Numbered from the stretch's first letter, positions 3,124 to 29,611 are shown. The stretch is 64,000 bases of DNA from Parcubacteria group bacterium (GCA_041661275.1 JBAZUU010000002.1:137148-201147), one strand, 5' to 3'. Notes: generated from the letters alone by a model not told the origin. Made by a program: numbers and translations.

Positions 3124-3333
3124 GTGATATATATGATGATGGCAAGTTGCAAGGATATGGGCGCAGATTGTGATTTTGTGGCCAAAGGCGAAACAGCATA
3201 TGATGTGAAAATGAAAATGATGGAGCACGCCAAGATGGATCACAAAGATATGATGGCCAAGATGGAAAGTATGTCTGATGACGAAAAGAAGAAGAATTGG
3301 GAGATGATGCTGAAAAATATGAAATGCGCTTAA
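3124..3333 (+). CDS. DUF1059-family small protein; true start probably one of the ATGs at 3133-3141
   Basis: SCKDMGADCDFVAKGETAYDVKMKMMEHAKMDH matches the DUF1059 pattern (C..G..C.F..R/K.ET..E....AH...H). GGGGGTG RBS precedes the ATG cluster. Confidence 0.55.
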   Translation: MIYMMMASCKDMGADCDFVAKGETAYDVKMKMMEHAKMDHKDMMAKMESMSDDEKKKNWEMMLKNMKCA

Positions 3334-3458
3334 TCTAGCTAGTACTATTTAAATAGTATTTACCAAAAACAACTTCCGCGAGGGGGTTGTTTTTGGTTGG
3401 GGGTGTACAGCTGCTTGGTTTTGTGGGATAATAGAGGTGTAAAAAATAAAATAAAAAA

Positions 3459-6400
3459 ATGAAACTAATCAAGAGAGGGTTAGTTAAAAAAATAGCGAGA
3501 TATTTTTTTGTATTAATATTCTCTTTTTTATTTTTTTCAATTTCTACAACTTTCGCTCAAGATACTGAAAATTCATTTCATATTCCTGGCACTCTTGAGG
3601 GAACGGGAAAACATTTTGAAATTACTGATAGCGAATATCTGAACATATCCTTAGACAGTAGTGAACGTATAGATGTCCGGATAGAATCGATGCCGGAGAT
3701 GATAATTTTACAGTTAAAATCTTCTCCTGACAATGATTCTGCCGAGATTAATATATCAGGGTTATCTTCTAAAACTACTTACCACAAATACGAAGATGAC
3801 TATCAAAATTACGCGCCACTTATAACTAATGAGTATGGCGCGTTTTCTTTTGAACAGGATTTGACCCAAGATCACATTATTTTCATCCAACCAAGAAAAA
3901 GCACAAAGATTATAAAGGATGATGCAACGGGATATGATTGCGGAGGAAGAAATGGCGTTGCCGGGATCGGTAATTGGAACGCATCTTCCAAAACATGCAC
4001 GCTAAACAAGGATGTACAAGAAACTATTCAAATCAATAGTGATGATATAACTCTGGATGGAAATGGGCACAATGTAACTGGATCAAATACGGGAAATGGC
4101 ATTTATGCTTTGGGCAAACGAAACATTATTAAAAATATTAACGTCAGCAATTTTTCATATGGAATTTATCTTCGCAACAGTGGTTCAGTGACTGCCAGTA
4201 CGGCAACAAATAATTATTACGGAATATATGTCTATGGCAATAGCGCAAATCCTCCTGGTGTTACCATTTCAAATAATTCCATTTTCAACAATCATAACTA
4301 TGGCATAAGTTTATTTTACACCAAAGATAATGAAATATCCGATAATATTGTTGGGCCAGGGCATTGGGTTGGTCTTTTTCAAACATCATCAGAGAATAGT
4401 ATCATCGAAAGAAATGATTTTTTTGAAAATCAATACGGGTTAAATCTCAATGGGGATTACAACAATCTCAACGGAAACACAATACGCAACAATAGCACAT
4501 CAAATTTTTATCTTGAAAGTAGTGATATGTCGACAAACAGTATAGGAACAGACAATACAATCGATGGAATGCCAATTTATTATGAAAAAAATGTTTCAAA
4601 TGAAACATATGATTCAATCAATATGGGAGCATTCTATTGCGCTAATTGCCAGAATATCACACTTAAAAATATTTCCTTTTCGGGAAAAGAAGCGCAAATG
4701 TTCTTTTGGCATACTGACAATTCTTTTGTAGAAGAAATAAGTTCTGCGGATAAAAGTATTGATGCCAGGCTGTATTATTCATCCAACAATACAATTGCAA
4801 AAAACACAATTGGCTCCATAAGGATTTATAAATCAAGCAACGAAAACAAGATATATAATAACAATATAATGACCGATGATTCCGGATATACGATAGCAAA
4901 TTCCTCTTTTGGTAATTTATTCAACGAGCCTTTACCGACAGGTGGAAATTATTGGAAGGCAAATGAATCTACTTGCAGGGATTTGAACAATGACAAAATT
5001 TGCGATACTCCGTTCTATTTTGATACCGGCGAAGACGATTATCCCTGGATCCAAGAGAATGATTTCAGTATGCCTTCAGGCAACTCTAACGTAATGTTTT
5101 TGCCGGGGATAAAGGCCAGCCGGCTTTATAAAAAAGATTCCGGCGGAGGCGAAGACCAGCTTTGGGAGCCGAACTATTTTGGAAATGATCTGGAAGATCT
5201 GACTTTGGATGAGAATGGGGAAAGTGTGAATAGCGTCTATACGCGTGATGTGATTGATGAGATAGGAACATCGTGGCTGGGACTCGGACCGAATATCTAT
5301 AAAACATTTATCAATCAACTCGCGTTGTTGAAAAATGACGGTACGATTAATGATTATAATATTTTCGCTTACGACTGGCGGCAAAGTGTGGAAGATATTG
5401 CCGAAAATGGAACGCCGTATAATGGAGAAATAAAATCAGCTATCGCGGAATTAGAAAGTCTGGCGGGAAGTTCCAAGAGCAAAAAAGTGACTTTGGTTGC
5501 CCATTCCAACGGCGGGCTCTTGGCCAAAGCTATAATGTTGGAGCTCGAAAAAACAGGAAAAGCTGACAAAGTGGACAAAATTGTTTTTGTCGGAACGCCG
5601 CAAATGGGCACGCCAAAGGCGATATTATCGATGCTCTATGGCTATGACGAGTCAGCGATTTTTGGAACACTCATTTCGGAGTCAGCTTCCCGTAAACTGG
5701 TCGAGAATATGCCAGGCGCTTATGGTCTTTTGCCGTCAGAAAAATATTTCGAGCGGACGGAGGAACCGTTTATTAATTTTTTGTCGGAGAATACAAAATA
5801 TAAAAGTTTTATGGATGCCTATCAAAGTGGTATTGATAGCTTCGGAGAATTCAGAGAATTTTTGACAGGATCTGGAGATGGCCGGGAAAAGCCGGATGAA
5901 AATGATGTGGAATCGGAGAACAAACTCAGTGGAAATCTTTTTGATCAGGCAGGCGAGTTGCATGATAATTTAGATGGCTGGACGGCACCGGAAAATATTC
6001 AGATAATTGAAATTGCCGGGTGGGGATTGGATACAATAACTGGCGTAGATTATACGGAAAAAGAAAAAGCCGAATGTTATTCTTATTTGGGTTATATCGT
6101 GCCATCCTGCGCCGGAACGGGGAAATATGAACCGGTTTATGAACCAAAATTTACTGTGGATGGAGACAAGGTGGTGACAGCGCCCAGCGCTTTGATGCTT
6201 CCGGAAGGAAGTAATGTGAAGAGGTATTGGGTGGATTTGTATAGGTATAACCACGATCCAATAGTTAATAAAAATCAAAATCATAGTAGTATTTTTGAAG
6301 TTAGTTCTATTCAACAATTTCTTTCAGATATTATTAAAAACACAAGTAATCCTCCCTTACCTGAATATATAAAAACAGCTCGTCCAAATGATTATAATAA

Positions 6401-7724
6401 CGCAAAGCCACGCATTCGCATGTCTCTCTATTCTCCACTGGATATCCATCTCTATGATGAAAATGGAAATCATACTGGACCAAAAAAAGTTACTGATGAA
6501 AATGGAAAAGAGGGAATAATTTTTGAAGAGAATATTCCCAACAGCTACTATTATCAATTCGGTGATCGTAAATATGTTGGTGTGCCAGGTGAAGAAAACA
6601 TCCATATGACTATGGATGGATACGATAATGGAGCTTATACATTGAAGATGGAAGAAGTCATGGAAACTGTCGGCGGCGAAGAAATAATATCTCATACTAC
6701 CTTTGCCGATCTTCCAGTATCGCCTGAAACATCTGTAGCAGTAGATATTCCAGAATCAGGACTTGACAGCTTGTCCAATCTGGAAGCGGATTTTGATGGA
6801 AATGGAGAGGGTGACTATGAAGTTATCCCAATTCCTAATGGTGAAGCTACTCTTCCTGATATGATTCCCCCGCAAACCGCGATTGAGTTATCAGGGACGG
6901 AGGGTGATAATAATTGGTATGCCAGCGATGTCGCGGTGAAGCTTACTGCTGTGGACAATGAAGGAGGATCGGGAGTGAATACAATTTCTTATTCTTTTGA
7001 CAATGGTGCGTCATGGCAAGAATATTTTAATTCGGTGAACATCTCCGGAGAAGGAATATTTAGTTTTCAATATTTTTCCACTGATAAAAAGGGGAACAAG
7101 GAAGAGATAAAAACAGAAAGCATAAAAATAGACAGGACTGCCCCGGAAGCAAAATTTACATTTGATCAAAACAATCAGAAATTTAATATTATTGGGATGG
7201 ATAATTTGTCGCAAAATATTGCGGTTGAGACAGAAGAGCAGGCAGTCAATTCAAAGCCGGAAACCAAAAGGGGGATATTTTTCTGGATTTTTGATATAAT
7301 CAAGAACAGAAAGAAAGAAAAAAACATCATTGCGACTTTGCGTGATGAAGCCGGGAATGAAACGAAAATCAATTTTACGAAGAAAGAAAATAATGATCAT
7401 TTTATCAATATTTTCCCGGAGTCTATTTCGTATAATGGCGTAAAAACGGATTTTTCCAAATCATCGTTGCAATATAAATGGCTTCTGAATTGGAGAAAGA
7501 AAAACTATGTTCTTTTCGGATCGCACATTATGGCAGGAGATGAGCTTTTGGAATCGCACTATCTCCCCAAAAGAAATGAAACGTGGATAATGCAAAGGCC
7601 AAGAGAGCTTGATGACGATGATAATGACGATGACGCGGAGAGGCGTCCAGTCTGGAAAAAGCTTTCTGGAATGGTTGTGCCCTTCATCCAAACGGAACAA
7701 GGAAAAATTGAAATAAAATATTAA
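3459..7724 (+). CDS. Giant secreted/surface protein: signal anchor, parallel beta-helix repeats (~aa 150-480), LCAT/PGAP1-like alpha/beta-hydrolase (lipase/acyltransferase) domain (~aa 540-760), Ig-like domain (~aa 1148-1230), acidic C-terminus
   Basis: N-terminal hydrophobic segment. Repeated NNxxYGI / NxxxGIxL beta-helix units. YDWR motif and AHSNGG (GxSxG) nucleophile elbow. WYASDVAVKL..SGV..ISYSFDNGASW..IDRTAPEA Ig-like motif. Confidence 0.8.
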   Translation: MKLIKRGLVKKIARYFFVLIFSFLFFSISTTFAQDTENSFHIPGTLEGTGKHFEITDSEYLNISLDSSERIDVRIESMPEMIILQLKSSPDNDSAEINISGLSSKTTYHKYEDDYQNYAPLITNEYGAFSFEQDLTQDHIIFIQPRKSTKIIKDDATGYDCGGRNGVAGIGNWNASSKTCTLNKDVQETIQINSDDITLDGNGHNVTGSNTGNGIYALGKRNIIKNINVSNFSYGIYLRNSGSVTASTATNNYYGIYVYGNSANPPGVTISNNSIFNNHNYGISLFYTKDNEISDNIVGPGHWVGLFQTSSENSIIERNDFFENQYGLNLNGDYNNLNGNTIRNNSTSNFYLESSDMSTNSIGTDNTIDGMPIYYEKNVSNETYDSINMGAFYCANCQNITLKNISFSGKEAQMFFWHTDNSFVEEISSADKSIDARLYYSSNNTIAKNTIGSIRIYKSSNENKIYNNNIMTDDSGYTIANSSFGNLFNEPLPTGGNYWKANESTCRDLNNDKICDTPFYFDTGEDDYPWIQENDFSMPSGNSNVMFLPGIKASRLYKKDSGGGEDQLWEPNYFGNDLEDLTLDENGESVNSVYTRDVIDEIGTSWLGLGPNIYKTFINQLALLKNDGTINDYNIFAYDWRQSVEDIAENGTPYNGEIKSAIAELESLAGSSKSKKVTLVAHSNGGLLAKAIMLELEKTGKADKVDKIVFVGTPQMGTPKAILSMLYGYDESAIFGTLISESASRKLVENMPGAYGLLPSEKYFERTEEPFINFLSENTKYKSFMDAYQSGIDSFGEFREFLTGSGDGREKPDENDVESENKLSGNLFDQAGELHDNLDGWTAPENIQIIEIAGWGLDTITGVDYTEKEKAECYSYLGYIVPSCAGTGKYEPVYEPKFTVDGDKVVTAPSALMLPEGSNVKRYWVDLYRYNHDPIVNKNQNHSSIFEVSSIQQFLSDIIKNTSNPPLPEYIKTARPNDYNNAKPRIRMSLYSPLDIHLYDENGNHTGPKKVTDENGKEGIIFEENIPNSYYYQFGDRKYVGVPGEENIHMTMDGYDNGAYTLKMEEVMETVGGEEIISHTTFADLPVSPETSVAVDIPESGLDSLSNLEADFDGNGEGDYEVIPIPNGEATLPDMIPPQTAIELSGTEGDNNWYASDVAVKLTAVDNEGGSGVNTISYSFDNGASWQEYFNSVNISGEGIFSFQYFSTDKKGNKEEIKTESIKIDRTAPEAKFTFDQNNQKFNIIGMDNLSQNIAVETEEQAVNSKPETKRGIFFWIFDIIKNRKKEKNIIATLRDEAGNETKINFTKKENNDHFINIFPESISYNGVKTDFSKSSLQYKWLLNWRKKNYVLFGSHIMAGDELLESHYLPKRNETWIMQRPRELDDDDNDDDAERRPVWKKLSGMVVPFIQTEQGKIEIKY

Positions 7725-7747: not shown

Positions 7748-8125
7748 ATGGAAAAGACATATCTGTGGAGAATTTTAACAATTTTACTTAGCCTTGTGCT
7801 ATTAGGTGCAGCGTATCTTATGAATGGACGAAATATTCTTTATTTGGAATCAATTAGTAGCCCATTGTTTGTTTTGAGTATGGCCATGTTGTTAGTTTCT
7901 ATCATCCTTCTTTTTATCAACGACAGAATTTTTCTCAAATGGCTTCGGTTTGCCATAGTTTGGGTTATTTTGTCAATAATTCTAATCGCGCTTACTCCCG
8001 AATATTCCGGCGGTTGGGTTCCTATGAATCCTGATCGGGAGTCGGTTTCCATTTGGATGGGTTCGCTTTTTGTTGTTTTGAGCCTGGCTAAAATTATTTG
8101 GGATTCATGGAAAGAGAAAAAATAA
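7748..8125 (+). CDS. Small polytopic membrane protein, hypothetical
   Basis: About four hydrophobic helices; no recognisable family. Confidence 0.5.
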   Translation: MEKTYLWRILTILLSLVLLGAAYLMNGRNILYLESISSPLFVLSMAMLLVSIILLFINDRIFLKWLRFAIVWVILSIILIALTPEYSGGWVPMNPDRESVSIWMGSLFVVLSLAKIIWDSWKEKK

Positions 8126-8320
8126 TAGGAAAAAAACACTGGGTATTCAGTCTAGTAGTGCTCGTGGTTGTTATAATCGCGGTATTAATTATTGTAGACA
8201 TGTTTTCAATTGGAACAATTTATTAATTTTGAAAAAAATATTTGGGACACATGGAAAGAAAAAAATAATCCCCAATCTTAAATTAAGGTTGAATCCTTGA
8301 GCGACGCTCAAGGACTGCTC

Positions 8321-8384: not shown

Positions 8385-8633
8385 CTAAACGCCGTAACTA
8401 CGTGTTTTTTCATGACAGGGAACGCATAATATTCGACAATTATCAACGGTATCAGAACCGCCAGCTTCTTGTGAAATAATATGGTGCGCATGCCATTTCC
8501 GATCCTCAATTTTATTTTGAGGATCAAGCATCTTGTTGCATCGACCATTATGATTGCAGGCGCCTAAGGTGCATTCACACTTTCCGCCCGCTCTACGCCA
8601 CGCTTGGTTGATGACTTCTTGAGAAAAAGCCAT
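8385..8633 (-). CDS. HNH endonuclease (small, stand-alone)
   Basis: C.C..C.HNGRC ... HAHHII..GGSD..DNCRILCVPCH zinc-finger/HNH signature. Confidence 0.8.
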   Translation of the reverse strand: MAFSQEVINQAWRRAGGKCECTLGACNHNGRCNKMLDPQNKIEDRKWHAHHIISQEAGGSDTVDNCRILCVPCHEKTRSYGV

Positions 8634-8799: not shown

Positions 8800-8836
8800 T
8801 TGACGTGTACAAACAGTCATATATAATGTATATATG
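8800..8836 (+). promoter_or_regulatory. Sigma70-like promoter of the lexA-like gene (TTGACG-N16-TATAAT), apparently leaderless, overlapped by palindrome CATATATA-ATG-TATATATG
   Basis: -35 at 8800-8805 and -10 at 8822-8827. The ATG at 8834 is ~7 nt after the -10. Perfect 8+3+8 palindrome at 8818-8836. Confidence 0.45.
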
Positions 8837-9472
8837 AGTATAAAACTAACGCCAAAACAAAGGAACGTTTTAGAATTTATTTACACATTTTTAGAAAATT
8901 CTGGCTTTCCGCCGTCAATTTCCGAGCTAAAAGAAGAGCTCAATGTTTCCTCCAACCAATCAGTTCTGAATTTTTTGGATACGCTTGAAAAAAAGGGCTA
9001 TATAAAAAGAGAAAAGGATCAAGCAAGAGGGCTAAAAATTTTACCGATGGGAGCCAGGGAAATTGGCAAAGACGTTTTAATAAAAGTAGTTGGAACAAGT
9101 GCGGCTGGACCATATATAGAATCCTACGCAAATGCATTTTCGTTTTATCCAGTACAAAAAGGAATTTTGGAAAAAGAAAATATTGCTGATTCCCAGGAGA
9201 AAGTTTTTGTTATTCAGGTTCAGGGTGATTCAATGACAAATATTGGAATAGAAAATGATGATATGCTTTTGGTGAAAGAAGCTAAGGAATTTAAAAGCGG
9301 TGATATTGTGGTGGCGGAAACTGATGAGGGTGCGACTGTCAAAAGATTTATTGCTGAAGGTGGAAAAAGATATTTGAAGCCTGAAAATCCAAACTACGAA
9401 AATATTCTAATAATACCTGGCGAAGTGAGATTTAGAGGAAGAGTAATTTTAAATTTAAGTAAAATAAAATAA
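8834..9472 (+). CDS. lexA: LexA-family repressor (winged-helix DNA-binding domain + S24 peptidase)
   Basis: N-terminus matches the LexA DNA-binding domain (LTPKQRNVLEFI..SGFPPSISEL). QVQGDSM Ser nucleophile and a downstream Lys form the S24 dyad. Confidence 0.85.
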   Translation: MSIKLTPKQRNVLEFIYTFLENSGFPPSISELKEELNVSSNQSVLNFLDTLEKKGYIKREKDQARGLKILPMGAREIGKDVLIKVVGTSAAGPYIESYANAFSFYPVQKGILEKENIADSQEKVFVIQVQGDSMTNIGIENDDMLLVKEAKEFKSGDIVVAETDEGATVKRFIAEGGKRYLKPENPNYENILIIPGEVRFRGRVILNLSKIK

Positions 9473-9476
9473 CAAG

Positions 9477-11435
9477 ATGCTCGAAAAAAATTTGCCTGTC
9501 GAAATAATCAACAAAGTATTCCGTGATCCGGATATGCAATTTGGTTTGGCAAATTTTAGCGATGTGAAGCTGGACCAGGTTTTGAAAATTTTTGAAGGCA
9601 AGGAAGATAAGGGAAAATTCTATGCCAAATGCTTAAAGCGAGGGAAAGACATTTTGATCTATAATGAAGAAAAAAAATTAGGAAAACCTGAGGAGATAAT
9701 CCGCCAGCTCATGGTCTATAAGCTGGTTAATTTTTATAAATACCCTATCGACCGCATCGATGTTGAAGTCGACGTGCAATTCGGACGTGAAATTGGAAAA
9801 AAAAGAGCAGACATTGTGGTTTATCGGGAAGACTTGAAAACTCCCTATTTACTGGTTGAGGTTAAAAAGCCGGATGTGAAAGATGGATTGGGACAACTCA
9901 AAAGCTACGCCAATGCCACTGGCGCGCCGATCCTGATTCTGACCGACGGAAAAATACAAAATAATATTCTTAGAACGGATCCAAATCTTTTTGAAGACCT
10001 GCCGGAGATTCCAAAATTTAACGAAACAGTTGATGACGTACGCAAGGAAAAAATTTCTTACGCAGATTTAAAAGAAGTTGAAAACTTAAAACAGCTTATT
10101 TATGATCTTCAAGAAGTGGTGTTGGCAAACAGTGGCGTCGATTCATTCGACGAAATTTTTAAACTAGTTTACGCCAAACTTTATGATGAGCTGGAAACTC
10201 CAAGAAGTGATAATAGAAGATTTAGGGTTATCGCTGGCGTAACCAATAAGGAAAATCTAGCTAATATCTGTCGTCTATTCGAAGACGCTAAAAAAGAATG
10301 GAAAGATGTTTTCAAGCCTAACGATGAAATAGAAATTCCGGAAAATGTTATTGTTCCGGCAGTTTCACTTCTTCAGAAATTCCGACTTTTTGGTTCTAAC
10401 CTCCAAGTTATTGATGACGCCTTTGAATATCTCATAAACTTGGATGCCAAAGGAGAAAAGGGGCAATATTTTACTCCCCGTCATGTTATCGATATGGCGG
10501 TCAAAATGCTGGCGCCTACTCCCAAGGATTCCATAATTGACACAGCTGCCGGATCTTGCGGGTTTTTACTTCATGCTATGCAATATGTTTGGGACAAAGA
10601 GATTAACAAAGAAAAATACGGTGATGATTATAAAACCAGACAGAAAAATTATGCCGAAAAGCAATTATTTGGAATTGATTTTGATCCTCGCAGCGTAAAA
10701 ATTGGAAAAGCGATGATGCTCATTGCAGGGGACGGAAAAACCAATGTTACATTTGCAAATTCTCTTGATAGCGAAAATTGGAGCGATGACGCTCGGACGA
10801 GATTCCGCCCGTTTCTTGCTAACTCTAAGGACAGTGAAGAAAACCGAAAAAACCAGGAACGAATGACTGATTTTAATTTTGATATTGTTATGACCAATCC
10901 GCCCTTTGCCGGAGAGATAAAGGGCGTGCTTCTCAATCGCTATGACTTGGGTTTCAAATGGGATAAGGAATTTCAAAAAACATCGAAGCATCAAAACAAG
11001 GTTTCTAGGGATATTCTTTTCATTGAGCGAAATTTGAATTTCCTAAAGCCTGGCGGACGAATGGCAATTGTTTTGCCGCAAGGGGTTTTCAATAATACCA
11101 ATTCCGAATATGTCCGGCGGTTTATTATGAATAAAGCGAAAATCTTAGCAGTGGTCGGACTTCATGGAAATACTTTTAAGCCGCACACCGGAACAAAAAC
11201 ATCGGTTTTGTTTTTGGAAAAGTGGGCCGGAAAACCACTTGAAGATTGTCCAATTTTTATGGCTGTTTCGAAACGCGGCGGAAAAGACACGTCAGGAGAT
11301 TATGTTTATAGGAAAGATAGAGAGGGGAATGTGATGTATGATGCAAGTGGGAAGAAAATCATTGATCATGATTTGGATGAGATTGCGGAGGAGTTTTTGA
11401 AATTCACAAATGAAAGCTATCTTAAATTGCAATAA
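9477..11435 (+). CDS. Bifunctional restriction endonuclease-N6-adenine DNA methyltransferase, BcgI subunit A-like (Type IIB/IIG-like): N-terminal HsdR_N-type PD-(D/E)XK domain + gamma-class MTase
   Basis: ADIVVY..LLVEVKK nuclease core (~aa 110-135). AdoMet motif I DTAAGSCGFLL precedes motif IV NPPFAG. 652 aa. No helicase/HsdR gene nearby. Confidence 0.75.
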   Translation: MLEKNLPVEIINKVFRDPDMQFGLANFSDVKLDQVLKIFEGKEDKGKFYAKCLKRGKDILIYNEEKKLGKPEEIIRQLMVYKLVNFYKYPIDRIDVEVDVQFGREIGKKRADIVVYREDLKTPYLLVEVKKPDVKDGLGQLKSYANATGAPILILTDGKIQNNILRTDPNLFEDLPEIPKFNETVDDVRKEKISYADLKEVENLKQLIYDLQEVVLANSGVDSFDEIFKLVYAKLYDELETPRSDNRRFRVIAGVTNKENLANICRLFEDAKKEWKDVFKPNDEIEIPENVIVPAVSLLQKFRLFGSNLQVIDDAFEYLINLDAKGEKGQYFTPRHVIDMAVKMLAPTPKDSIIDTAAGSCGFLLHAMQYVWDKEINKEKYGDDYKTRQKNYAEKQLFGIDFDPRSVKIGKAMMLIAGDGKTNVTFANSLDSENWSDDARTRFRPFLANSKDSEENRKNQERMTDFNFDIVMTNPPFAGEIKGVLLNRYDLGFKWDKEFQKTSKHQNKVSRDILFIERNLNFLKPGGRMAIVLPQGVFNNTNSEYVRRFIMNKAKILAVVGLHGNTFKPHTGTKTSVLFLEKWAGKPLEDCPIFMAVSKRGGKDTSGDYVYRKDREGNVMYDASGKKIIDHDLDEIAEEFLKFTNESYLKLQ

Positions 11436-12264
11436 ATATATGAATAACCCAAAAAGTACCTTGGGTCAGAAATGGATAAATTTTTTAAATGCTGTTTTTA
11501 GTCCAGTTCCAATTTTTTCATTATTAGGCGGATTAGGGCTTCTTTATTTGTCGGTGCACTATAAAGATGATGGCAGATTTTCAATCCTAATTAATTTGGC
11601 GGGCTCTCTTTTGATTGGTATCGGCGGTGCCTTTATTAAAGACAGATATGTTGAACTATCAAATGAATCAATTCTTATAAAAAAAGGTCAATCGGCAGTA
11701 AGAAATTTAGAATCTATCGCAAAACAAATAGAACAAATAAGATCTTGGCTTAAGTTTTTTATTTCTAGTAAAACATCAGATAAAAGAGATCTTGAAGAAA
11801 TCAATCGTCATTTAAGCACTACCGAAATGAACATTGCATCTGGGTTAGCAGATTGGATTGATATTGTTCCAGAGTTAAATAAAAAGGCGGAAGAAATGGC
11901 TGAAAAAGCAAAAAGCTATGAAGAAGTTGTTAAAACCTATGTTGAGGAATTATTTAAAAATAAAAAGAAGCTTTTAGAAGTGGGAGAGAATAAAAAACTT
12001 AAAGAACGATTACAAGAAAGCATAAAAAACCTGGAAAAAGAAGTAAGAGATTTAAAAAAATATAGGCCAGAATTTACTGCGAGTGGAATAATTAGTAGCT
12101 CATCCTTTGGTTCAAATGGAAACGGTCTTTCTTATTTAAATCGAAACTCTCTTGCACGTGGCCTATCAAAAACTTGTTCAAATTGCGGCAGAGTATTCGA
12201 AGATGATATAAATAGGCTTACCATCGGTCCGGATTTGTGCGAGGAATGCAGAAAAACAATATGA
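11410..12264 (+). CDS. Membrane-anchored coiled-coil protein with C-terminal CxxC..CxxC zinc ribbon, unknown function; alternative start at 11439
   Basis: Two N-terminal TM helices, a long K/E-rich predicted coiled coil, and CSNCGRVF..CEEC. Overlaps both flanking RM genes by 26-28 nt (translational coupling). Confidence 0.5.
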   Translation: MKAILNCNKYMNNPKSTLGQKWINFLNAVFSPVPIFSLLGGLGLLYLSVHYKDDGRFSILINLAGSLLIGIGGAFIKDRYVELSNESILIKKGQSAVRNLESIAKQIEQIRSWLKFFISSKTSDKRDLEEINRHLSTTEMNIASGLADWIDIVPELNKKAEEMAEKAKSYEEVVKTYVEELFKNKKKLLEVGENKKLKERLQESIKNLEKEVRDLKKYRPEFTASGIISSSSFGSNGNGLSYLNRNSLARGLSKTCSNCGRVFEDDINRLTIGPDLCEECRKTI

Positions 12265-13598
12265 TAAACTGTTCAATAATCCAAAAATCCCATCTTGAAG
12301 GCGCGATGCGATTAGATGCTGAATATTATTGTAGCGATTCATTAATCGGGTCTAATTTTCATCTAGGCAAAGACGTTGTTTCTTTTGTTCAGTATGGTAC
12401 ATCAAAAGAATTAAACGAGGAAAATAGAGGCTATCCGGTTTTGCGGCTCAATGAATTTGAGGATTGGTTCGCGGGACAACCGACGAAATATTGCAATAAG
12501 ATTAGTGAACAAACTTTTAATGGTTTAAAGCTCAAAAAAGGGGATGTATTAATTTGCAGAACCAATGGGAATCCTAAGCTTGTAGGAAAAGCTGCTCTCG
12601 TTGCGGAAAATACCAACATTGCTTTTGCTTCGTATTTATTTAGAGTTCAAGCTGATTCTTTAAAAATTAATTCCGCCACACTTACTGCGTTTTTAAATTC
12701 TAAAATCGGCAGAGCAGAGATTGAAAAATTTATTATGCCTAGCATTCAATCTAACTTCAGCCCTGCTCAATTTAGACAAATTAAAATACCTATTTTTCCA
12801 CCAGCCTTACAAAAAGAAATTGAAACGCGTTTATTTGACTCATATGAACTTTTAGCCGATTCGAAATCTTCTTATCAGCAAGCTGAAGATTTACTATTAG
12901 AAGAGCTGGGATTAAAAAATTTTGATTTTGAAAAAATATTGTCATCAGTTGTTAATTATTCCGATGTTCTAGAAGCTGAAAGAATAGACGCAGAATATTT
13001 TCAGCCGAAATATGAAAAACTGATTTCGAAAATAAAGGAAAGAAATTATAAAACCTTGCCGGAAATTATAGAAAATGTGCCTGCTGTTTTTAACGCCGCT
13101 TCAAAACCGTCAGAAAATTTCAAATACGTAGAGTTATCAAATATTAATCCTTCCGTTGGAATAATTGATGGTTTTTCAGAAGTATCAGGAAGAGAAGCGC
13201 CAGGAAGAGCGAAAAGAATATTAAAGTCTGGCGATGTAATAGTTTCAAGTGTAGAAGGATCGCTGGAAAAAGTTGCGCTGGTTGATAAAGAGCAAGATGG
13301 ACATCTTGCATCAACAGGATTTTTTCAATTGCGAAGTGATAAAATTTTGCCAGAAGTTTTACTTGTTATAGCCAGGAGTTTGGTTTTTCAAATGCAACTC
13401 GAAAAGCAATGTGCTGGAACAATTCTTACTGCCGTGCCAAAAGAGGCGATAAAAAATATTGTTGTACCAATCTTACCGAAAGAAACGCAGCAAAAAATCG
13501 CTGATCTTGTGCGACAGTCGCACAAAGCGCGGAAAAAGGCGAAAGAGCTTTTAGAAGAAGCGAAAAGGAAAGTTGAAGGGATGATAGAGAATAAATAA
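12237..13598 (+). CDS. hsdS: Restriction-modification specificity subunit (HsdS/BcgI-B-like, two target-recognition domains)
   Basis: Duplicated halves (RLDAEYY.. / RIDAEYFQP..). Central and C-terminal conserved helical spacers (IPIFPPALQKEIETRL..; ILPKETQQKIADLVR..). Confidence 0.85.
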   Translation: MRGMQKNNMINCSIIQKSHLEGAMRLDAEYYCSDSLIGSNFHLGKDVVSFVQYGTSKELNEENRGYPVLRLNEFEDWFAGQPTKYCNKISEQTFNGLKLKKGDVLICRTNGNPKLVGKAALVAENTNIAFASYLFRVQADSLKINSATLTAFLNSKIGRAEIEKFIMPSIQSNFSPAQFRQIKIPIFPPALQKEIETRLFDSYELLADSKSSYQQAEDLLLEELGLKNFDFEKILSSVVNYSDVLEAERIDAEYFQPKYEKLISKIKERNYKTLPEIIENVPAVFNAASKPSENFKYVELSNINPSVGIIDGFSEVSGREAPGRAKRILKSGDVIVSSVEGSLEKVALVDKEQDGHLASTGFFQLRSDKILPEVLLVIARSLVFQMQLEKQCAGTILTAVPKEAIKNIVVPILPKETQQKIADLVRQSHKARKKAKELLEEAKRKVEGMIENK

Positions 13599-13898: not shown

Positions 13899-14210
13899 AA
13901 TAAAAATTATCTTCTTGCTGTTTTGATGTTCCTTCTTGGCATCGGCATTGGGCTTTGGATGGGGAAAATAAAATACTCCCAAAATAAAAGCATAGTTTCG
14001 ACAAGTTAGCAGTTGTCAACTGATGCTCTACGTATGTAAGCAATATTTAGGCTTGCCATAGCCAAAAAATCAAGCTTAGGTACATATCCTACTCCAGAGT
14101 ATACTACTTATGAGTACGATAAATCAATCGAGGACCGTTCTCGATTAGTTGTTAAAAAAATGTATGCACGTTTATGACAGACAAAGAATTGATGGGAATG
14201 AAAAATTTTT

Positions 14211-14861
14211 ATGCGCATAATTGCTAAAGCGATACAATATCTGATGCTGAAGATTATGAAAAGGCTTGGTCCTTCGGATGATGACAGGCCGGCTGTTGCT
14301 GCGGCGGACCAGTTGTTGGATAAATTGCTTCCGTCTGCTTTCGCGGTTTTTCGCGATGAGAGGTTTAGGGAAGTGTGTAATTTTGGGAAAATCAGCCAGG
14401 TCGAGCATGATAGGATCTTTAACGAGCTGGAAGTGTCCGCTATCATCCTTTGTCAGTTTTGTATTGATGATCGTATGGCGATTATCGGAAATCGCGATTT
14501 TCATTTTTGGGAAACCGTCCGCGAGAATATGCCAAAAGTTTTTGTGGATAAGCTTCTGGAATATGGCGTGAAAAAAAGCGATGCTGACTTATATTTCGAC
14601 CTTATCAAGATGAGACATGACCAATATTCGAAAATCGCCGATGGCAACCGCGATCATATGGAAAATGACAAGCTATTTTCAGAATATAAAGATAGCCAGG
14701 CAGCTATGGATACGCTAAATAGGGTGCAGGCGATAATTGTGGGTACGGCGGATCATATTCGCCGGGGAAAATTAAAAAAAGGGGACGAATTGATGCGGCT
14801 GCTCAGGTCATGGCTGTTTCCCCTTGATATGGAAATTTCAAAATTTATTCGGAAACTATAA
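14211..14861 (+). CDS. Hypothetical protein (216 aa), no recognisable family; locally GC-richer
   Basis: Longest ORF in the region with a coding-like profile. Overlapping minus-strand ORFs are judged spurious. Confidence 0.45.
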   Translation: MRIIAKAIQYLMLKIMKRLGPSDDDRPAVAAADQLLDKLLPSAFAVFRDERFREVCNFGKISQVEHDRIFNELEVSAIILCQFCIDDRMAIIGNRDFHFWETVRENMPKVFVDKLLEYGVKKSDADLYFDLIKMRHDQYSKIADGNRDHMENDKLFSEYKDSQAAMDTLNRVQAIIVGTADHIRRGKLKKGDELMRLLRSWLFPLDMEISKFIRKL

Positions 14862-19602: not shown

Positions 19603-20528
19603 GTAAAAAAGCAATAAAAATAATTCTAAAAATAACTGTCAGTCTTTTTTTTGTGATTCTCGTTGTCTACAAAACCAATTGGCCGGAGGTGCTTTTTTAT
19701 CTCAAAAAAATACAACTCTGGCAGATCTTTCTTTATATTTTAGTTTACGTTATTAGCATCGCTATCTCATCATATAAGTGGAAAATACTTTCCGAATTTA
19801 AAAATATCAGACATTCTTTCAACACTTATTTTAAGCTCTATCTGACCGGAACATTTATCAATAATTTCATGCCGTCTTTTGTGGCAGGGGATGCCTATAA
19901 AGCCTATGAAATTGCGAAACCCCATAATCGTTATATGGAAGCGTCATCCACTGTTATCATGGACAGAATAACCGGACTCATCGGCGCGATGGTTCTGGCT
20001 CTGGTTTTTTCGGCCATAAATTACAAAACGCTCCTGGCCAATGACCTTTTGATGTTTATCGATGCCCTGATTGTCCTTTCTCTTTGTACGGATGTAATTA
20101 TCGCCAAGTTGAAAACAATTCCGGCTATGCGAAATTTTGTGATGCGGATCTTACCGGAAAAAGCGGTTGATTTTTTGCAGCAAATATACAACTATAGCAA
20201 CAACACTGCCATAATAAAAAAGGCCGTCCTTTGGGGGATGGCGTTCTCTATTATCGGAGTGGCGTTTTTGAATTACATTCTTTTTTGGGGACTGGGAATC
20301 GACGTCAATTTTTTTGATTACATGTCGGTCATTTTTATTATCAGTATTGTTTCCGCTCTGCCCATTACGGTCAATAATATCGGACTCAAGGAATGGGCAT
20401 ATATCACCTTTTTTGGAATTTTTGGTATCAGCTCCGGCGCGGTGGTAGCCATTTCGGTCATTAGTCGTTTTTTGCAGATGGCGATCAGTTTCACGGCATT
20501 ACCGGCATATTTACGGAGTCGAAAATAA
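19599..20528 (+). CDS. Flippase-like / lysylphosphatidylglycerol-synthase-TM-like (UPF0104) membrane protein
   Basis: About eight TM helices; FMPSFVAGDAYKAYE segment typical of the family; 4-nt overlap with the upstream GT4. Confidence 0.65.
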   Translation: MSKKAIKIILKITVSLFFVILVVYKTNWPEVLFYLKKIQLWQIFLYILVYVISIAISSYKWKILSEFKNIRHSFNTYFKLYLTGTFINNFMPSFVAGDAYKAYEIAKPHNRYMEASSTVIMDRITGLIGAMVLALVFSAINYKTLLANDLLMFIDALIVLSLCTDVIIAKLKTIPAMRNFVMRILPEKAVDFLQQIYNYSNNTAIIKKAVLWGMAFSIIGVAFLNYILFWGLGIDVNFFDYMSVIFIISIVSALPITVNNIGLKEWAYITFFGIFGISSGAVVAISVISRFLQMAISFTALPAYLRSRK

Positions 20529-22292
20529 TTTATTCCAGGTAAGAAGTTGTGAGATTTGAAATTCCTCGATGGGAATTTTTTTATCTTCCGGGTCTTGTCT
20601 TTGGGCGGTGATGATTTCATTTTTCGGTTTCAGATAAAAAGCAGTCAGGATGCCAAAATTCTTTTCTTGAATTATATCGTAAGTCGCAAGTATACTGCTA
20701 AGGCCTTTTTTGCCATTTAGGACGGATTCTTGTTCTATGTAAAAATAATTTCCCTGGTCATAAGCTTTGTCGGCGGAAAAGATGTCATAATAATCAATAC
20801 CTCTTTTTTCCAGATAATACCAATAAACCGGCTCATACTCATGGGTTGTCCTTATGCATATCGGATAACCGTTTGCTTTGTATTTTGATTCGATATAGTC
20901 GACGATAGGCAATTGCTGGCTCAGGGTGACGCGGGTATTGTCCGGAAAAATGTCTTCCGTTTGAGCTCTGAATGTTTCGTTTTGAGCTCGGGAAAGTTGG
21001 TTAAAACTGTCTTTTATTCTCGATATGTTGGAATAAGACAAGACTGCGACAATAATGACGGGAATGACAAAGGTTAATTTTTTTCGGGGAAAATACAATT
21101 TTTCCAGCAAGAAACCGAAAAAGATTATGGCCAGAGGCGCGACCGGCAGGAAAAAACGCGGGTAGACATAGAGTCCGTCATAAAGAACCAGAAAGTAACA
21201 GGCGAATGAAAAAATTATCCACAGAAGGATAAGTAGGAGGAGATCTCTGCGTCTCTGGTCGCGTTCTGTTTTTAGGTTAAGTAACAGGATAAAAAAAGAA
21301 GCAATGAAAAGGACAAAGGGCAAAAAAGTTACAGCTAACTTTTTCTGGCAGGATTTGCACAAAATCCCCCAGGAACTTCCGGTGAGATGCGAGCCGTTTA
21401 TGTTGTCAATGCCGCTGTTGATCAAAAAATAGTTACCGACATTATAGCGAATATCCTGGACAACTTTTTCCCATGATTTTTTGTCTTTTGATTCTGTTTT
21501 TTCCGTTTCATTGCCGGAATGGAAGGGCAGTCTTTCCAAAAAATAGCTCAAATTTTGTCCTCCGGTTTTTACATCGCTGATGACGACAGGAGAATAAACC
21601 GCTAAAAATATTGCTATCGCCGCAAGCCATATTTTCCACCGGAAACGCGGGCGCTTGATAAGGAGGAAGAAAAAAGTGACAGCGGGGACTATAAAAAAGG
21701 CGTTAAAATGAATTTGTGAAGTAAGGGCGACAAAAAAAGCGGCCAAAAGAAACCAATATTCTTTTTTTTCTTCTTTTTCCGAAACGCTTTTCAAAAGCGC
21801 GTAAAAGCAAAAAAGAACCAAAAAAGGCAGAACATCGGGACTCCAGGAAAAGCGGGAATATAAAACGAGGTACGAGGAAAAAGAAAAGATGGCCAAAAGC
21901 GCCAGAGATAAATTTTTCGAAAAATATCTCCGGCAGAAAAAATAAAAAAGTGGCATGGCCAGAATTCCCAAAATCAACACTTGGGCGGCGTGCCCGGCCG
22001 GAGTGTTGCCAAAAATGAGGGCGCTCAAATATTCCATATAGTAGAAAGCCGGACCGAGGCGCAAGGATCTTCCGCCGCCGGCTGTTGGTCCCAAAAGCGG
22101 CAAATTTCCCGGACCGTTTTGGACGGCATTGGAAACGATATTGATGTCATAAGTCTGATCAATCTCAAAATGGAGCCAGTCACTGAAATGGTATGAACGC
22201 AAAAAAATCCCTGTTAAAAAAATAACAAGGAAGATGGCCAATGTCAGTTTGTTTTGTTTGGCTTTTTCAAATGAAGATCGAAAAAATTTCAT
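20511..22292 (-). CDS. GT-C fold glycosyltransferase, PMT/ArnT-like (GT39/GT83-type), paralog 1
   Basis: N-terminal block IFLRSYHFSDWLHFEIDQ..NLPLLGP..LRLGPAFYY shared with three paralogs; polytopic. Confidence 0.8.
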   Translation of the reverse strand: MKFFRSSFEKAKQNKLTLAIFLVIFLTGIFLRSYHFSDWLHFEIDQTYDINIVSNAVQNGPGNLPLLGPTAGGGRSLRLGPAFYYMEYLSALIFGNTPAGHAAQVLILGILAMPLFYFFCRRYFSKNLSLALLAIFSFSSYLVLYSRFSWSPDVLPFLVLFCFYALLKSVSEKEEKKEYWFLLAAFFVALTSQIHFNAFFIVPAVTFFFLLIKRPRFRWKIWLAAIAIFLAVYSPVVISDVKTGGQNLSYFLERLPFHSGNETEKTESKDKKSWEKVVQDIRYNVGNYFLINSGIDNINGSHLTGSSWGILCKSCQKKLAVTFLPFVLFIASFFILLLNLKTERDQRRRDLLLLILLWIIFSFACYFLVLYDGLYVYPRFFLPVAPLAIIFFGFLLEKLYFPRKKLTFVIPVIIVAVLSYSNISRIKDSFNQLSRAQNETFRAQTEDIFPDNTRVTLSQQLPIVDYIESKYKANGYPICIRTTHEYEPVYWYYLEKRGIDYYDIFSADKAYDQGNYFYIEQESVLNGKKGLSSILATYDIIQEKNFGILTAFYLKPKNEIITAQRQDPEDKKIPIEEFQISQLLTWNKLFSTP

Positions 22293-22999
22293 AGGCGTTC
22301 AAGAGCTTCATATTCAGGGGCTAGTTCCGGGTGGAAGATGACTTCTACTTCAGAGTTATCTTGAGTATTTTGAAGGCAGGAGTCCAGGTTATGACTCCAG
22401 TCAAAACTGATCATATAATCAGAAGTAACTACGGAAGATTTTTTCATCTGTCCAAAATCCAATTTTTTCAACAAATTCAAAATGGCGCAGACCTTATTTT
22501 TATGACTGTATGGTTTTTTTCCGAAACGTATATAGCTTATGCCATATTTTTTAGAGAGCTTCAGAAATCTCCGAAAATAGGGCGGGAAAAAATGGATATG
22601 CTCATGCGAACTGGCGCCGTCAGGAAATTTTCCGAACAGATTTTTAAAATCCATAATTTGCCGTTCCCATTCCTGTTCAACGATGGCCGGACGGTTGTGG
22701 CCGAAAAAGAAGTTGTAGAGAAAAAGAAAGATCCTTTTTATCGCGCCTTTTTCGATAACTCGAGGGTTATTTTGCCAAAAATCAAGCTTGTCCTTGGCCA
22801 AGTGGAAATGGATATCGAGCTTCACGCCTGAGGCGAGAAGGCGTGAGGCGTGCTCCGGTGAGATATTTTTGCTGACCATTATTTCTACCCGATCGAGCTT
22901 TCCGCTTTCTGCCAACGTCAAAATATTGGCATTGGCTCTCTGGCTGATGCCAAAATCATCCGCAGAAACGATTATCATTTTTCCGCCCAGTTTTATCAT
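22289..22999 (-). CDS. ChbG/HpnK (YdjC) family carbohydrate deacetylase
   Basis: MIIVSADDFGISQRANANIL N-terminal signature; His-rich metal site. Confidence 0.7.
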   Translation of the reverse strand: MIKLGGKMIIVSADDFGISQRANANILTLAESGKLDRVEIMVSKNISPEHASRLLASGVKLDIHFHLAKDKLDFWQNNPRVIEKGAIKRIFLFLYNFFFGHNRPAIVEQEWERQIMDFKNLFGKFPDGASSHEHIHFFPPYFRRFLKLSKKYGISYIRFGKKPYSHKNKVCAILNLLKKLDFGQMKKSSVVTSDYMISFDWSHNLDSCLQNTQDNSEVEVIFHPELAPEYEALERL

Positions 23000-23058
23000 A
23001 ATTTAATTGTAATATATAAATCGAAATAAGGAAAATTAAAAATTTTCAATAGTCAGAC

Positions 23059-24735
23059 TTACAAAGAAGCATTACAAGTCTCGTCTTCTCCCGGCTGGCC
23101 CCCGGGATTTTTCGCTTCCGCGTCTATCACCAGAAGATTTCCGGTTTTTTTCTGGTCGCGGATAAAAAATTGCTCCTCAAGATCTTTTGGCATTTTCTGA
23201 TTGACACTCAATCGATAGACCAGAAAATAATCCAGTTTTCCGGAGGGGTGGAAAGCGCTGGTCTTGACGTAGCAGGCGGGGATATTCTCCTGATAACGGA
23301 GAAGATAGAAAATGGCTCGAGCGAAAGAATTGTCAGCCGCGATTCTTACCATATCGTCCGATCGTCTGTGTTTTTTGATGTATTCAACCGTGTTTTCCAG
23401 CTGTTCCAGGGTTATTTTTTTGTCATTAAAAAATTCTCTCCCGACAGTATTTTCCACCTCGCCTTTGGCCATAGCCGTGTGCTCTTTGAAATAAATGGAA
23501 TCACTCCTTAAATTAAATAGCATGACGGCGACGGACAAGAGGATTATGACTATTTTTCCGTGTTTTCCAGCAAAACATTCTATTTTTTTCAAGGTCATTC
23601 CCAAAAAAACAAGAAGAGGAGCTACGGCCGGCAGATAATAGCGCGGGCTCATGTTATAAATAATCGGTATGGAAATTGCAAACATCGATCCCAGCCACAA
23701 CCAAGCCGAGAAAATATATTTTTTTCTGTCCCGGTCGCGCTCGCGGCGAAAAAAATAAAAACTGGACCAGAGGCCAAAAACAAAAAGAAGAGTTTGCAGA
23801 AAAAGAAAGGGCAGGTCTTGCCGACATTGCCGGTCGCAAACCGGAAGAAATTTTTTCGATAGCGCTACCGAGCTTCCGTGCTCGTCAGAAGTTATCATTT
23901 GCCAGCTGATTATCTCCAGTTTTTGGAAAGCATAAAAAGATTTGTCAACTACATTATGTTTGCTTTCGCCCGACATTCCTCTTTCAAAAGTATTTTTGAT
24001 AAGCAGTTTGGTGTTATTGGCGTTATTTTCCATTTCACTGATGATCATAGGTGAATAGACAGCTAAAACAATCAGCAGTCCCGCTATATAATTTTTTATC
24101 TTTAATCTCGGTCTCCAGGCAATGATGTAAATCAATATCAAAACAGGCGCCATAAAAAAATAAACGTAATGAAGCTGGGTGGCGATAGAGGCGCTGAAAA
24201 TTGCCGCATAAAACCAGCCTGGACGGACAGTGTCTTTCCAGTCGGCCTTCAGAAGCCCGAAAAGCGTCAGGAGCGTAAAAAAGGGCAGAGGATTGGGATT
24301 GGAGGCAAACCGTCCATAGATGACCAAAAAAAGCGAAACGGCGGTGATGGCCGAAAGAGCCAAGGAAATATTTTTAGAAAAATAAAGACGCAAAAAATAA
24401 TACAGGAGAGGGACAAAAAGGATAGAAAAGAGCCAGTCAGGCATGGCGAAAATTTCCGGGCGGGTTCCCAGAAAAAAAGCGGGAACGGCCTGGAGATAAT
24501 AGTATGCCGGACCCAATTGCAAAGTACTGCCGCTGGTATGCGGTCCGAGAAGCGGAATTTTCGAGAGTCCATCGCGGACAAAATCACCGACAATAATAGC
24601 GTCTCGGGATTGATCCAAATGAAAGCCTAAAAATGGCACAAAATGATACGACCGCAAAAAAATTGCCAGAAGAACTATAGTTGTCAGGATTAGATATTCA
24701 GTTCTGACGAGTTTTTTGATATTTGCAAATAGCAT
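23059..24735 (-). CDS. GT-C fold glycosyltransferase, PMT/ArnT-like, paralog 2
   Basis: IFLRSYHF..HLDQSRDA..IPLLGP..LQLGPAYYY block; polytopic. Confidence 0.8.
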   Translation of the reverse strand: MLFANIKKLVRTEYLILTTIVLLAIFLRSYHFVPFLGFHLDQSRDAIIVGDFVRDGLSKIPLLGPHTSGSTLQLGPAYYYLQAVPAFFLGTRPEIFAMPDWLFSILFVPLLYYFLRLYFSKNISLALSAITAVSLFLVIYGRFASNPNPLPFFTLLTLFGLLKADWKDTVRPGWFYAAIFSASIATQLHYVYFFMAPVLILIYIIAWRPRLKIKNYIAGLLIVLAVYSPMIISEMENNANNTKLLIKNTFERGMSGESKHNVVDKSFYAFQKLEIISWQMITSDEHGSSVALSKKFLPVCDRQCRQDLPFLFLQTLLFVFGLWSSFYFFRRERDRDRKKYIFSAWLWLGSMFAISIPIIYNMSPRYYLPAVAPLLVFLGMTLKKIECFAGKHGKIVIILLSVAVMLFNLRSDSIYFKEHTAMAKGEVENTVGREFFNDKKITLEQLENTVEYIKKHRRSDDMVRIAADNSFARAIFYLLRYQENIPACYVKTSAFHPSGKLDYFLVYRLSVNQKMPKDLEEQFFIRDQKKTGNLLVIDAEAKNPGGQPGEDETCNASL

Positions 24736-24737
24736 TT

Positions 24738-25523: not shown

Positions 25524-25535
25524 AAATTTAATCCG

Positions 25536-29519: not shown

Positions 29520-29611
29520 AGTTTTAGTCCATTACGTTTAGTTATTGCTAAAATACTCAAAATACCCTAAAATTTAAAATAGCCTACAGAATATATTGTA
29601 CAGGCAAACTT

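Follow-up and report, generated by a model that had tools for sequence, protein, structure and literature searches.

We propose that two adjacent genes of a Moranbacteria-like Parcubacteria bacterium form a two-gene unit that encodes an exported lipase and a small membrane protein. The genes lie at 3459-7724 and 7748-8125 of a 64-kb stretch of DNA (GCA_041661275.1 JBAZUU010000002.1:137148-201147), which we call the window. The first is a single long open reading frame (ORF) on the + strand, uninterrupted from its ATG start. It encodes 1421 amino acids (aa) and has no paralogue elsewhere in the window. Its product carries a lipase domain with the fold of LCAT and LPLA2, and is very probably an active exported serine acyl-hydrolase. 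That it is an effector of the phospholipase A type, directed against neighbouring membranes, and that the second gene encodes a membrane-embedded protein for self-protection, is a longer chain of claims. Taken whole, we hold that chain to be evenly balanced.

The host had been predicted to be of the candidate phyla radiation (CPR) type, and this agrees with the databases: an identical protein at NCBI is named "Parcubacteria group bacterium", and the nearest relatives are from Moranbacteria/Moraniibacteriota. Searches for tRNA, tmRNA, and Rfam families gave no match in the window that was usable for taxonomy; for tRNA and Rfam, there was no hit at all.

The main features of the two genes are as follows. 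(A1 is an alignment of 23 homologues with 22-66% identity; pLDDT, the predicted local distance difference test, is from AlphaFold2 or AF2 models; nt, nucleotides; TM, transmembrane.)

3459..3557, + strand: predicted signal peptide, residues 1-33, with a conserved A-x-A-like site and a predicted cleavage position
3591..3893, + strand: N-terminal beta-sandwich, residues ~45-145 (AF2 pLDDT >90; no Pfam match)
3906..5048, + strand: right-handed parallel beta-helix of the NosD/CASH type, residues ~150-530 (Pfam, PDB profile, AF2, and fold matches)
5076..6338, + strand: LCAT/LPLA2-fold alpha/beta-hydrolase (lipase) domain, residues ~540-960
5370..5381, + strand: YDWR motif, residues 638-641 (invariant in 23 and 44 homologues; aligns with the YDWR of LPLA2)
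5499..5516, + strand: nucleophile elbow AHSNGG, residues 681-686 (Ser683 is nt 5505-5507)
6165..6167, + strand: predicted catalytic Asp903, in DGDKVV (residues 901-906), invariant in A1 and inside the Pfam LCAT match
6282..6284, + strand: predicted catalytic His942, in NHSS (residues 941-944), invariant in A1
6411..6848, + strand: family-specific beta-sandwich, residues ~985-1130 (AF2 strands with pLDDT ~90; no Pfam match)
7748..8125, + strand: partner gene for a protein of 125 aa, with four TM helices predicted; it starts 23 nt past the lipase stop codon

Sequence model, motifs, and fold all place the catalytic domain in the LCAT family (PF02450). The Pfam model matches residues 616-913 (E = 8e-16; 58.7 bits vs. 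a cut-off of 21; profile positions 68-358 of 392), and eight further family members also exceed the Pfam LCAT threshold. The match to PGAP1 (PF07819) is marginal (25.6 vs. a cut-off of 24.3). Y638, D639, W640, R641, H682, S683, G685, G686, G902, D903, V906, and H942 are invariant in A1, and the same residues hold in our other family alignments. A Ser-Asp-His triad is present at the sequence level: His942 follows Asp903 by ~40 residues, and this order and spacing suggest that it is the equivalent of the LCAT/LPLA2 histidine. In a pairwise HMMER comparison, YDWR and VAHSNG align to APYDWRR and VAHSMG of human LPLA2 (chain 4x90_A).

The fold gives the same answer. An AF2 model of residues 530-1421, based on the family alignment, has a pLDDT of 81, and the hydrolase (~540-960) is well modelled. 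When we compared it to the PDB with Foldseek, LPLA2 was the top match (E = 7e-13, target TM-score 0.70), LCAT was next (E = 7.5e-11, target TM-score 0.70), and then came Tle4, a type VI secretion system (T6SS) phospholipase (E = 2e-10). These matches extend to the cap and membrane-binding subdomains, so in the model the hydrolase domain has the LCAT/LPLA2 architecture beyond the common alpha/beta core. The original prediction of an LCAT-family lipase with YDWR and AHSNGG is borne out by the Pfam match, the invariant Ser, Asp, and His, and LPLA2 as the clear top fold match; PF02450, along with the two Pfam families named for the helix (PF13229 and PF05048), scores above threshold.

LCAT-family enzymes take an acyl group from a glycerophospholipid, form an acyl-serine intermediate, and pass the acyl group to water or to an acceptor hydroxyl. 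Because the window's domain shares the LCAT/LPLA2 architecture, a phospholipase-A-type reaction is by analogy the most likely chemistry. A membrane phospholipid is probably the substrate, although we say this with less confidence than that the enzyme is active.

The protein has the features of an exported protein. It was described as having a signal anchor, but a cleavable Sec signal peptide is more likely, judging from its sequence. The n-region is rich in K/R, the h-region covers residues 15-29, and TFA is followed by QD, with Ala33 as the last residue before the predicted cut. The homologues likewise have an A-x-A-like site with acidic residues after it, and signal peptides are found throughout the family. 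This is the sole hydrophobic stretch in the 1421-aa protein; the AF2 model has a helix at residues 5-26, with low pLDDT. There are also 8 cysteines, in four close pairs; four of them (C161, C180, C506, and C515) are nearly invariant. The cysteine pairs together with the signal peptide support an extracytoplasmic location.

The lipase and the beta-sandwich that always follows it (~985-1130) define a very large, uncharacterised family that is found almost only in Patescibacteria. Our first search found ~40 clusters with both Beta_helix and LCAT domains, and the clusters with a named source were all from the Parcubacteria group (Parcubacteria, Moranbacteria, Yonathbacteria, Paceibacterota, or Pacebacteria). 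With one genome per GTDB species, there are at least 149 relatives. We kept 80 of these, and nearly all of the 80 are from Patescibacteria (Moraniibacteriota, Kaiser-, Nomura-, Zambryski-, Falkow-, Yanofsky-, and Tayloriibacteria, Paceibacterota, and Minisyncoccia). Loci that are labelled as Thermosynechococcus, Methanoregula, or Caldilineaceae lie on short contigs of metagenome-assembled genomes, and we did not take them as placing the family outside Patescibacteria.

We also searched a profile of the lipase and sandwich against 1.84 billion cluster representatives (50%-identity clusters). It matched 10,783 of them at E <= 1e-3, 4,907 at E <= 1e-10, and 2,689 at E <= 1e-30. The best 150 matches cover most or all of the profile and have 0-760 residues in front of it. 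Using domain hidden Markov models (HMMs), we found the lipase-sandwich core in 62 of the 65 family proteins that we examined. The window protein's own N-terminal domain and helix are restricted to closer relatives, and other members often carry other beta-helices. So, while every sequence element that the original prediction named is present, statistically supported, and in the order given, the domain combination is not unusual, as had been thought. It recurs in the ~40 Beta_helix-LCAT clusters, in thousands of cluster representatives with the lipase and sandwich, and with other beta-helix N-termini. The two beta-sandwiches (residues 45-145 and 985-1130) are further domains that the prediction did not include, and the partner gene was also absent from it.

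No terminator-like site lies between the lipase gene and the partner gene. Basic residues at the partner's N-terminus, in its TM2-TM3 loop, and at its C-terminus suggest an N-in/C-in topology (by the positive-inside rule). A homologous gene is found 3' of the lipase gene on three unrelated contigs, and an HMM built from those contigs matches 48 ORFs in the loci that we fetched, all of them on the lipase strand and directly downstream. Among 58 evaluable loci from GTDB species representatives, 34 have a partner homologue directly downstream of the lipase gene. In 8 others, which are more divergent, there is an unrelated-looking ORF of 85-114 aa that has 2-4 TM segments and whose gap to the lipase gene is -7 to +19 nt.

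The association also holds in the other direction. Three of three partner homologues from an independent search (P0201, P0191, and P0185) lie 17-24 nt after an LCAT-domain gene. Two of these three LCAT-domain genes have no beta-helix Pfam match on record, so it is the lipase, rather than the helix, that the partner goes with.

Divergence is more rapid in the partner than in the lipase: compared to the window's copies, mean identity is 30% for the partner vs. 43% for the lipase, and the two co-vary (r = 0.62). The partner's outer loop 1 is hypervariable, usually with a pair of cysteines, while outer loop 2 (TPEYSGGW..NPxKE) and an inner IFLKWLRFA motif are conserved. The outer loops are only ~10-17 residues long. 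The sole database match for the partner is a weak, borderline hit to DUF202 (PF02656; 24.4 bits vs. a cut-off of 23.4), which covers only TM3-TM4; 15 of 28 partner homologues match DUF202 at E <= 0.01. Some loci have tandem copies of the partner (four in L004, three in L026, and two each in L008 and L009). In L004, the four partner-family genes are consecutive after one lipase gene (10118-12067). L021 has two lipase-partner pairs, with partner-family ORFs at 6420-6860 and 9801-10292. In the window, the partner gene is followed by this near-repeat:

8240..8270, + strand: near-repeat of the partner gene's last ~31 nt (compare 8096-8126; IWDTWKEK vs. IWDSWKEKK)

The near-repeat is ~145 nt downstream, and a short hydrophobic frame without a clear start codon lies between the copies. 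It may be the vestige of a second tandem copy, of the kind that is intact in L004, L008, L009, and L026.

The N-terminal half of the protein would be the part that binds a surface. An AF2 model of residues 1-560 (from the family alignment) has a pLDDT of 90.4 and a pTM (predicted TM-score) of 0.84. The N-terminal beta-sandwich is the best-conserved part of this N-module, with the motifs YHKYEDDY and IFIQPRKSTK. Its near-invariant residues come from alignment A4, some of whose proteins have other enzymatic heads. The helix that follows matches Beta_helix (PF13229; residues 234-370, E = 2.8e-17) and NosD (PF05048; residues 193-354, E = 6.8e-15, 55.5 bits vs. a cut-off of 23.6). It had been described as ~10 turns with a repeated motif. 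The helix itself is well supported, but the clean N-x-x-x-G-I motif is found in only ~4 coils. The AF2 model has roughly a dozen coils at residues ~150-470 and then a cap that extends to ~530. The cap sequence at 493-529 (GGNYW...C-D-L-N-N-D-K-I-C-D) looks like a Ca-binding loop.

A profile of the protein matches the PDB structure of NosD (7o0y, E = 1.5e-12), and the alignment includes the GGNYW motif of the cap. The common features (a NosD-type helix and a GGNYW...DxNxDG..D cap) are a resemblance of fold type only. The window has no nos genes (nosZ, nosF, or nosY), and given this lack of nos gene context, we ruled out a NosD function. The fold neighbours of the N-terminal half are weak (E = 1e-5 to 1e-3) and include a GH87 glucanase, NosD, tailspikes or capsule depolymerases of phages, and AlgG. 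Because nearly all of the best-ranked neighbours are glycan-active or glycan-binding helices, "CASH-type glycan-binding helix" fits the modelled N-terminal half better than "adhesin-like", the earlier term. The helix resembles NosD, GH87, tailspike depolymerases, and AlgG rather than autotransporter adhesins, and we ruled out an autotransporter-type adhesin, as there is no beta-barrel translocator.

The combination of the N-terminal domain and a NosD-type helix also occurs in proteins from the archaeon Candidatus Methanoperedens, at ~40-49% identity (loci L052, L061, and L066; proteins P0069, P0074, and P0089). This similarity suggests an exchange of surface modules between CPR bacteria and archaea.

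The same N-module is also fused to NlpC/P60, C39, M6, and other heads. In the proteins with peptidase heads that we looked at (P0078 and P0058 with NlpC/P60, and P0080 with C39), the gene is followed at 9-28 nt by a small gene. These small genes have no significant Pfam match, and none of them matches the HMM for the 4-TM partner. Instead, they encode one N-terminal TM anchor and an outer domain of 150-300 aa with weak similarity to PsbP, with the motifs TYxNxEWGFEFQYPxxW and FNQILASFKFL. They are at L089:3597-4580, L090:5482-6201, L091:5786-6340, and L091:6357-7073 (the two copies in L091 are in tandem). Thus, which small gene lies downstream depends on the enzymatic head: the membrane-acting enzyme would be followed by a membrane-embedded protein, and the wall-acting enzymes by a wall-side globular protein. 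By analogy, this is the pattern expected of an effector and its cognate self-protection protein in polymorphic toxin systems. It would fit a competitor or a host as the target alike, as a parasite also has a membrane and a wall of its own to protect. The PsbP-like single-TM proteins may be a second family of this kind in Patescibacteria.

We imagine that the system works as follows. The large protein would be exported through Sec, and its signal peptide would be cleaved. The N-terminal beta-sandwich and the NosD/CASH-type helix probably bind a cell-surface glycan, which would place the Ser683-Asp903-His942 hydrolase against a lipid surface. An acyl-Ser683 intermediate would form from a glycerophospholipid, and the acyl group would go to water, or possibly to an acceptor hydroxyl as in LCAT/LPLA2. 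This would yield a lysolipid and a fatty acid, either free or transferred. The membrane that is attacked most likely belongs to a neighbouring host cell, in which case the reaction would weaken the host's envelope and free lipids for uptake by a lipid-auxotrophic cell, while the co-transcribed 4-TM protein, in the producer's membrane, would most likely protect against the enzyme. On its own, the claim that the partner is an immunity protein is tentative, and we put it slightly below an even chance.

Harvesting of host lipids is plausible in light of published ideas (PMC8080830, PMC7242380). Lipidomics suggests that CPR cells build their membranes from the lipids of other cells, and that these membranes are rich in lysolipids, which are thought to derive from other bacteria, possibly via phospholipase A (PMC7242380). 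In Vampirococcus lugosii, a secreted phospholipase (Vamp_34_196) was proposed to disrupt the host's membrane and to supply lipids (PMC8080830). The proposed role is the same as the one we suggest; the likeness is by description only, and the parts of that paper that we draw on do not describe a partner gene or an LCAT fold. According to a 2024 perspective, mechanisms of lipid uptake and breakdown in Patescibacteria have not been identified (PMC11665869).

Several observations weigh against the proposal that the lipase is an effector and that the partner protects the producer. The sequence similarity to LCAT, LPLA2, and Tle4 of solved structure is remote (profile E = 1e-4 to 1e-6), and the specificity of an alpha/beta-hydrolase is not readable from its fold. 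(Searching the PDB with the single sequence gave only weak matches, with E >= 0.1, and the lipase-sandwich profile, A5, was less sensitive against the PDB than the full-length profile.) In 16 of the 58 evaluable loci, there is no small membrane ORF downstream. The 64-kb window has no genes for lipid uptake or re-acylation that would tie the enzyme to assimilation, and we found no anchor motif that would hold the lipase on the producer at the site of contact with the host. As in polymorphic toxins, the N-module has alternative heads and the small downstream gene is head-specific and sometimes in tandem (L004, L008, L009, L026, and L091), but unlike in those toxins, the end of the lipase domain is near residue 960 of 1421, with the sandwich after it. 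Finally, the known immunity proteins of phospholipase toxins (the Tli proteins) are not polytopic membrane proteins but lipoproteins or soluble proteins of the periplasm.

The enzyme could instead act on the producer itself, by making lysolipids or transacylating in its outer leaflet, with the 4-TM protein as a dock or activator. LCAT and LPLA2 are also transacylases, CPR cells are rich in lysolipids that may ease curvature stress (PMC7242380), and the lipase has no other anchor that we could find. The tight coupling of the genes and their co-variation would suit a docking partner as well as an immunity protein. However, a housekeeping dock is not expected to diverge beyond recognition, to have a hypervariable loop 1, or to form tandem arrays. 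Effector-immunity pairs typically show such a switch of partner with the head while the beta-helix module stays the same, and a glycan-type beta-helix of ~500 residues is hard to explain for an enzyme of the cell's own membrane. We therefore consider self-directed remodelling to be unlikely. We give a similarly low weight to the idea that the lipase and the 4-TM protein are the missing device for acquiring lipids. The helix would dock on the host's envelope, the enzyme would strip off acyl chains or lysolipids (possibly with direct transacylation), and the partner, beyond protecting the producer, would accept the products and place them in the symbiont's membrane. If this is true, it would explain why CPR membranes are rich in lysolipids and how these cells build membranes without fatty-acid synthesis.

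Another possibility is that the lipase does attack other cells and that the partner is a factor for its maturation or anchoring, like Lif. A membrane protein is encoded directly 3' of the lipase with no terminator in between, and the gene order is the same as in lipA-lif operons (cf. PMC12096544). But the Lif of the lipase operons of families I.1 and I.2 has a single anchor and a large periplasmic helical domain that surrounds the lipase, while the window's partner has four TM helices, loops of ~10-17 residues, and no extracytoplasmic domain. Lif is also not characterised by tandem copies or by rapid divergence. The predicted topology makes a Lif-like foldase unlikely, and we think that a maturation or anchoring role of any kind is improbable.

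The helix might also bind a polysaccharide from which the hydrolase removes acetyl or feruloyl groups, or the hydrolase might depolymerise polyhydroxybutyrate or cutin-like material. This seems very unlikely to us: the best fold matches act on phospholipids (LPLA2, LCAT, and Tle4, with much higher Z and ~330 aligned residues), the YDWR of the LCAT family is invariant, and an integral-membrane partner makes little sense for a polysaccharide esterase. Least credible of all is a structural surface protein or adhesin whose hydrolase is a degenerate binding module. The database names are only "beta-helix repeat" or "cell surface protein", and the protein has several Ig-like and sandwich domains, but the triad, the PG motif in the oxyanion region, and YDWR are invariant across deep divergence, which would not be expected for a dead enzyme.

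Returning to the proposal of an effector with a self-protection partner, we compared the pair to known systems. LPLA2 and LCAT, a pair of phospholipase-acyltransferases, are best known from eukaryotes. The window's domain is only 15-17% identical to LCAT/LPLA2 (PLA2G15; PF02450), is bacterial, lies within a 1421-aa exported multidomain protein, and is paired with a 4-TM protein. The sterol and ceramide acceptors of LCAT and LPLA2 are not expected in this setting. Tle4 (TplE; PDB 4r1d), an antibacterial phospholipase from the T6SS of Pseudomonas aeruginosa, has the extended lipase fold in common with the window's lipase. In contrast to Tle4, the window's lipase has a Sec signal peptide and presumably comes from a single-membrane cell, and its delivery module is a beta-helix rather than VgrG/PAAR. 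There are no T6SS genes (VgrG, Hcp, or PAAR) among the annotated ORFs of the window. Tli4 is soluble and periplasmic, whereas the window's partner is a polytopic 125-aa protein with four TM helices and short loops. The pair would work like Tle4-Tli4 but is not a member of that system. We did not find a description of this LCAT-like family or its partner in the open-access literature (searching for PF02450, and for Parcubacteria, Patescibacteria, or Saccharibacteria with lipase or phospholipase). What is already known is the class of enzyme and the type of role; what is undescribed is the architecture, the partner, and the size of the family in a little-studied phylum.

The C-terminal part of the large protein contains two other regions:

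6918..7130, + strand: OmpL47-type Ig-like beta domain, residues 1154-1224 (NCBIfam NF047446, 53.9 bits vs. a cut-off of 40)
7176..7721, + strand: beta-rich C-terminal region, residues 1240-1421 (pLDDT 42-68; a domain HMM is found in a minority of relatives)

The Ig-like domain that was noticed earlier (NNWYASDV..., from residue 1151) is the OmpL47-type domain NF047446. The Leptospira OmpL47 equivalog (NF047441) scores just 37.3 bits vs. a cut-off of 250, so only the single-domain model passes. The fold matches here are to proteins with tandem Ig-like domains (SiiE, Sap, and Bap). The acidic tail is also real: DDDDNDDD is at residues 1385-1392 (nt 7611-7634), with 29 residues between it and the C-terminus.

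A gene for a Met/Lys-rich 66-aa DUF1059 protein, at 3133-3333, is the lipase gene's close neighbour on the upstream side. This neighbour is also present on two other contigs with an identical lipase (L001 and L002). An operon that includes it is unlikely, as the 125-nt gap holds a hairpin (seen by eye) and this promoter-like site just 5' of the lipase ORF:

3404..3432, + strand: promoter-like site TGTACA-17-GATAAT with a TG extension (from a consensus scan only, which is not evidence of function)

On the other side of the two genes are:

8385-8633, - strand: ORF of 82 aa with an HNH domain, followed by LexA
8834-13598, + strand: LexA, a fused HSDR_N/N6_Mtase/Eco57I-type methylase-restriction gene, a DUF4795-like gene, and a specificity subunit

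Next, at 14108-14861, both strands have overlapping ORFs, four in total and 101-216 aa long; the longest of these (14211-14861) has no Pfam match. The window also encodes RecQ, RhuM, and a few housekeeping genes besides LexA and the restriction-modification system. Around the homologues of the lipase, we found restriction-modification, Fic, RhuM, zeta-toxin, and AbiEii genes, so the lipase genes tend to lie in variable, defence-rich regions.

The rest of the window is largely concerned with glycans, with glycosyltransferases (GT2, GT4, and PMT_2-type), a flippase, Wzy, LytR, and UDP-glucose dehydrogenases. Among its annotated ORFs, there are no genes for the synthesis of fatty acids or phospholipids. 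Five PMT_2-type (GT-C) membrane glycosyltransferases, which are paralogues, lie in a row at 20511-31402:

20511-22292, - strand: PMT_2 paralogue
23059-24735, - strand: PMT_2 paralogue
25536-27170, - strand: PMT_2 paralogue
27171-29519, - strand: PMT_2 paralogue
29612-31402, + strand: PMT_2 paralogue

A YdjC gene and a metallophosphoesterase gene are interspersed among them, and the row is within a larger island of envelope-glycan genes (GT2, GT4, flippase, Wzy_C, LytR, and LPG_synthase_TM).

Patescibacteria account for much of the diversity of bacteria, and the majority are unable to make their own lipids. The two-gene unit could show how such cells breach the membrane of a host, what the source of their lysolipids is, and why they do not digest themselves. 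More broadly, it would be one form of a modular effector toolkit, in which a beta-helix carrier is joined to a lipase or peptidase head and is accompanied by a matching partner gene. The pair is a concrete, testable candidate for how ultra-small and probably lipid-dependent bacteria breach membranes and take lipids.

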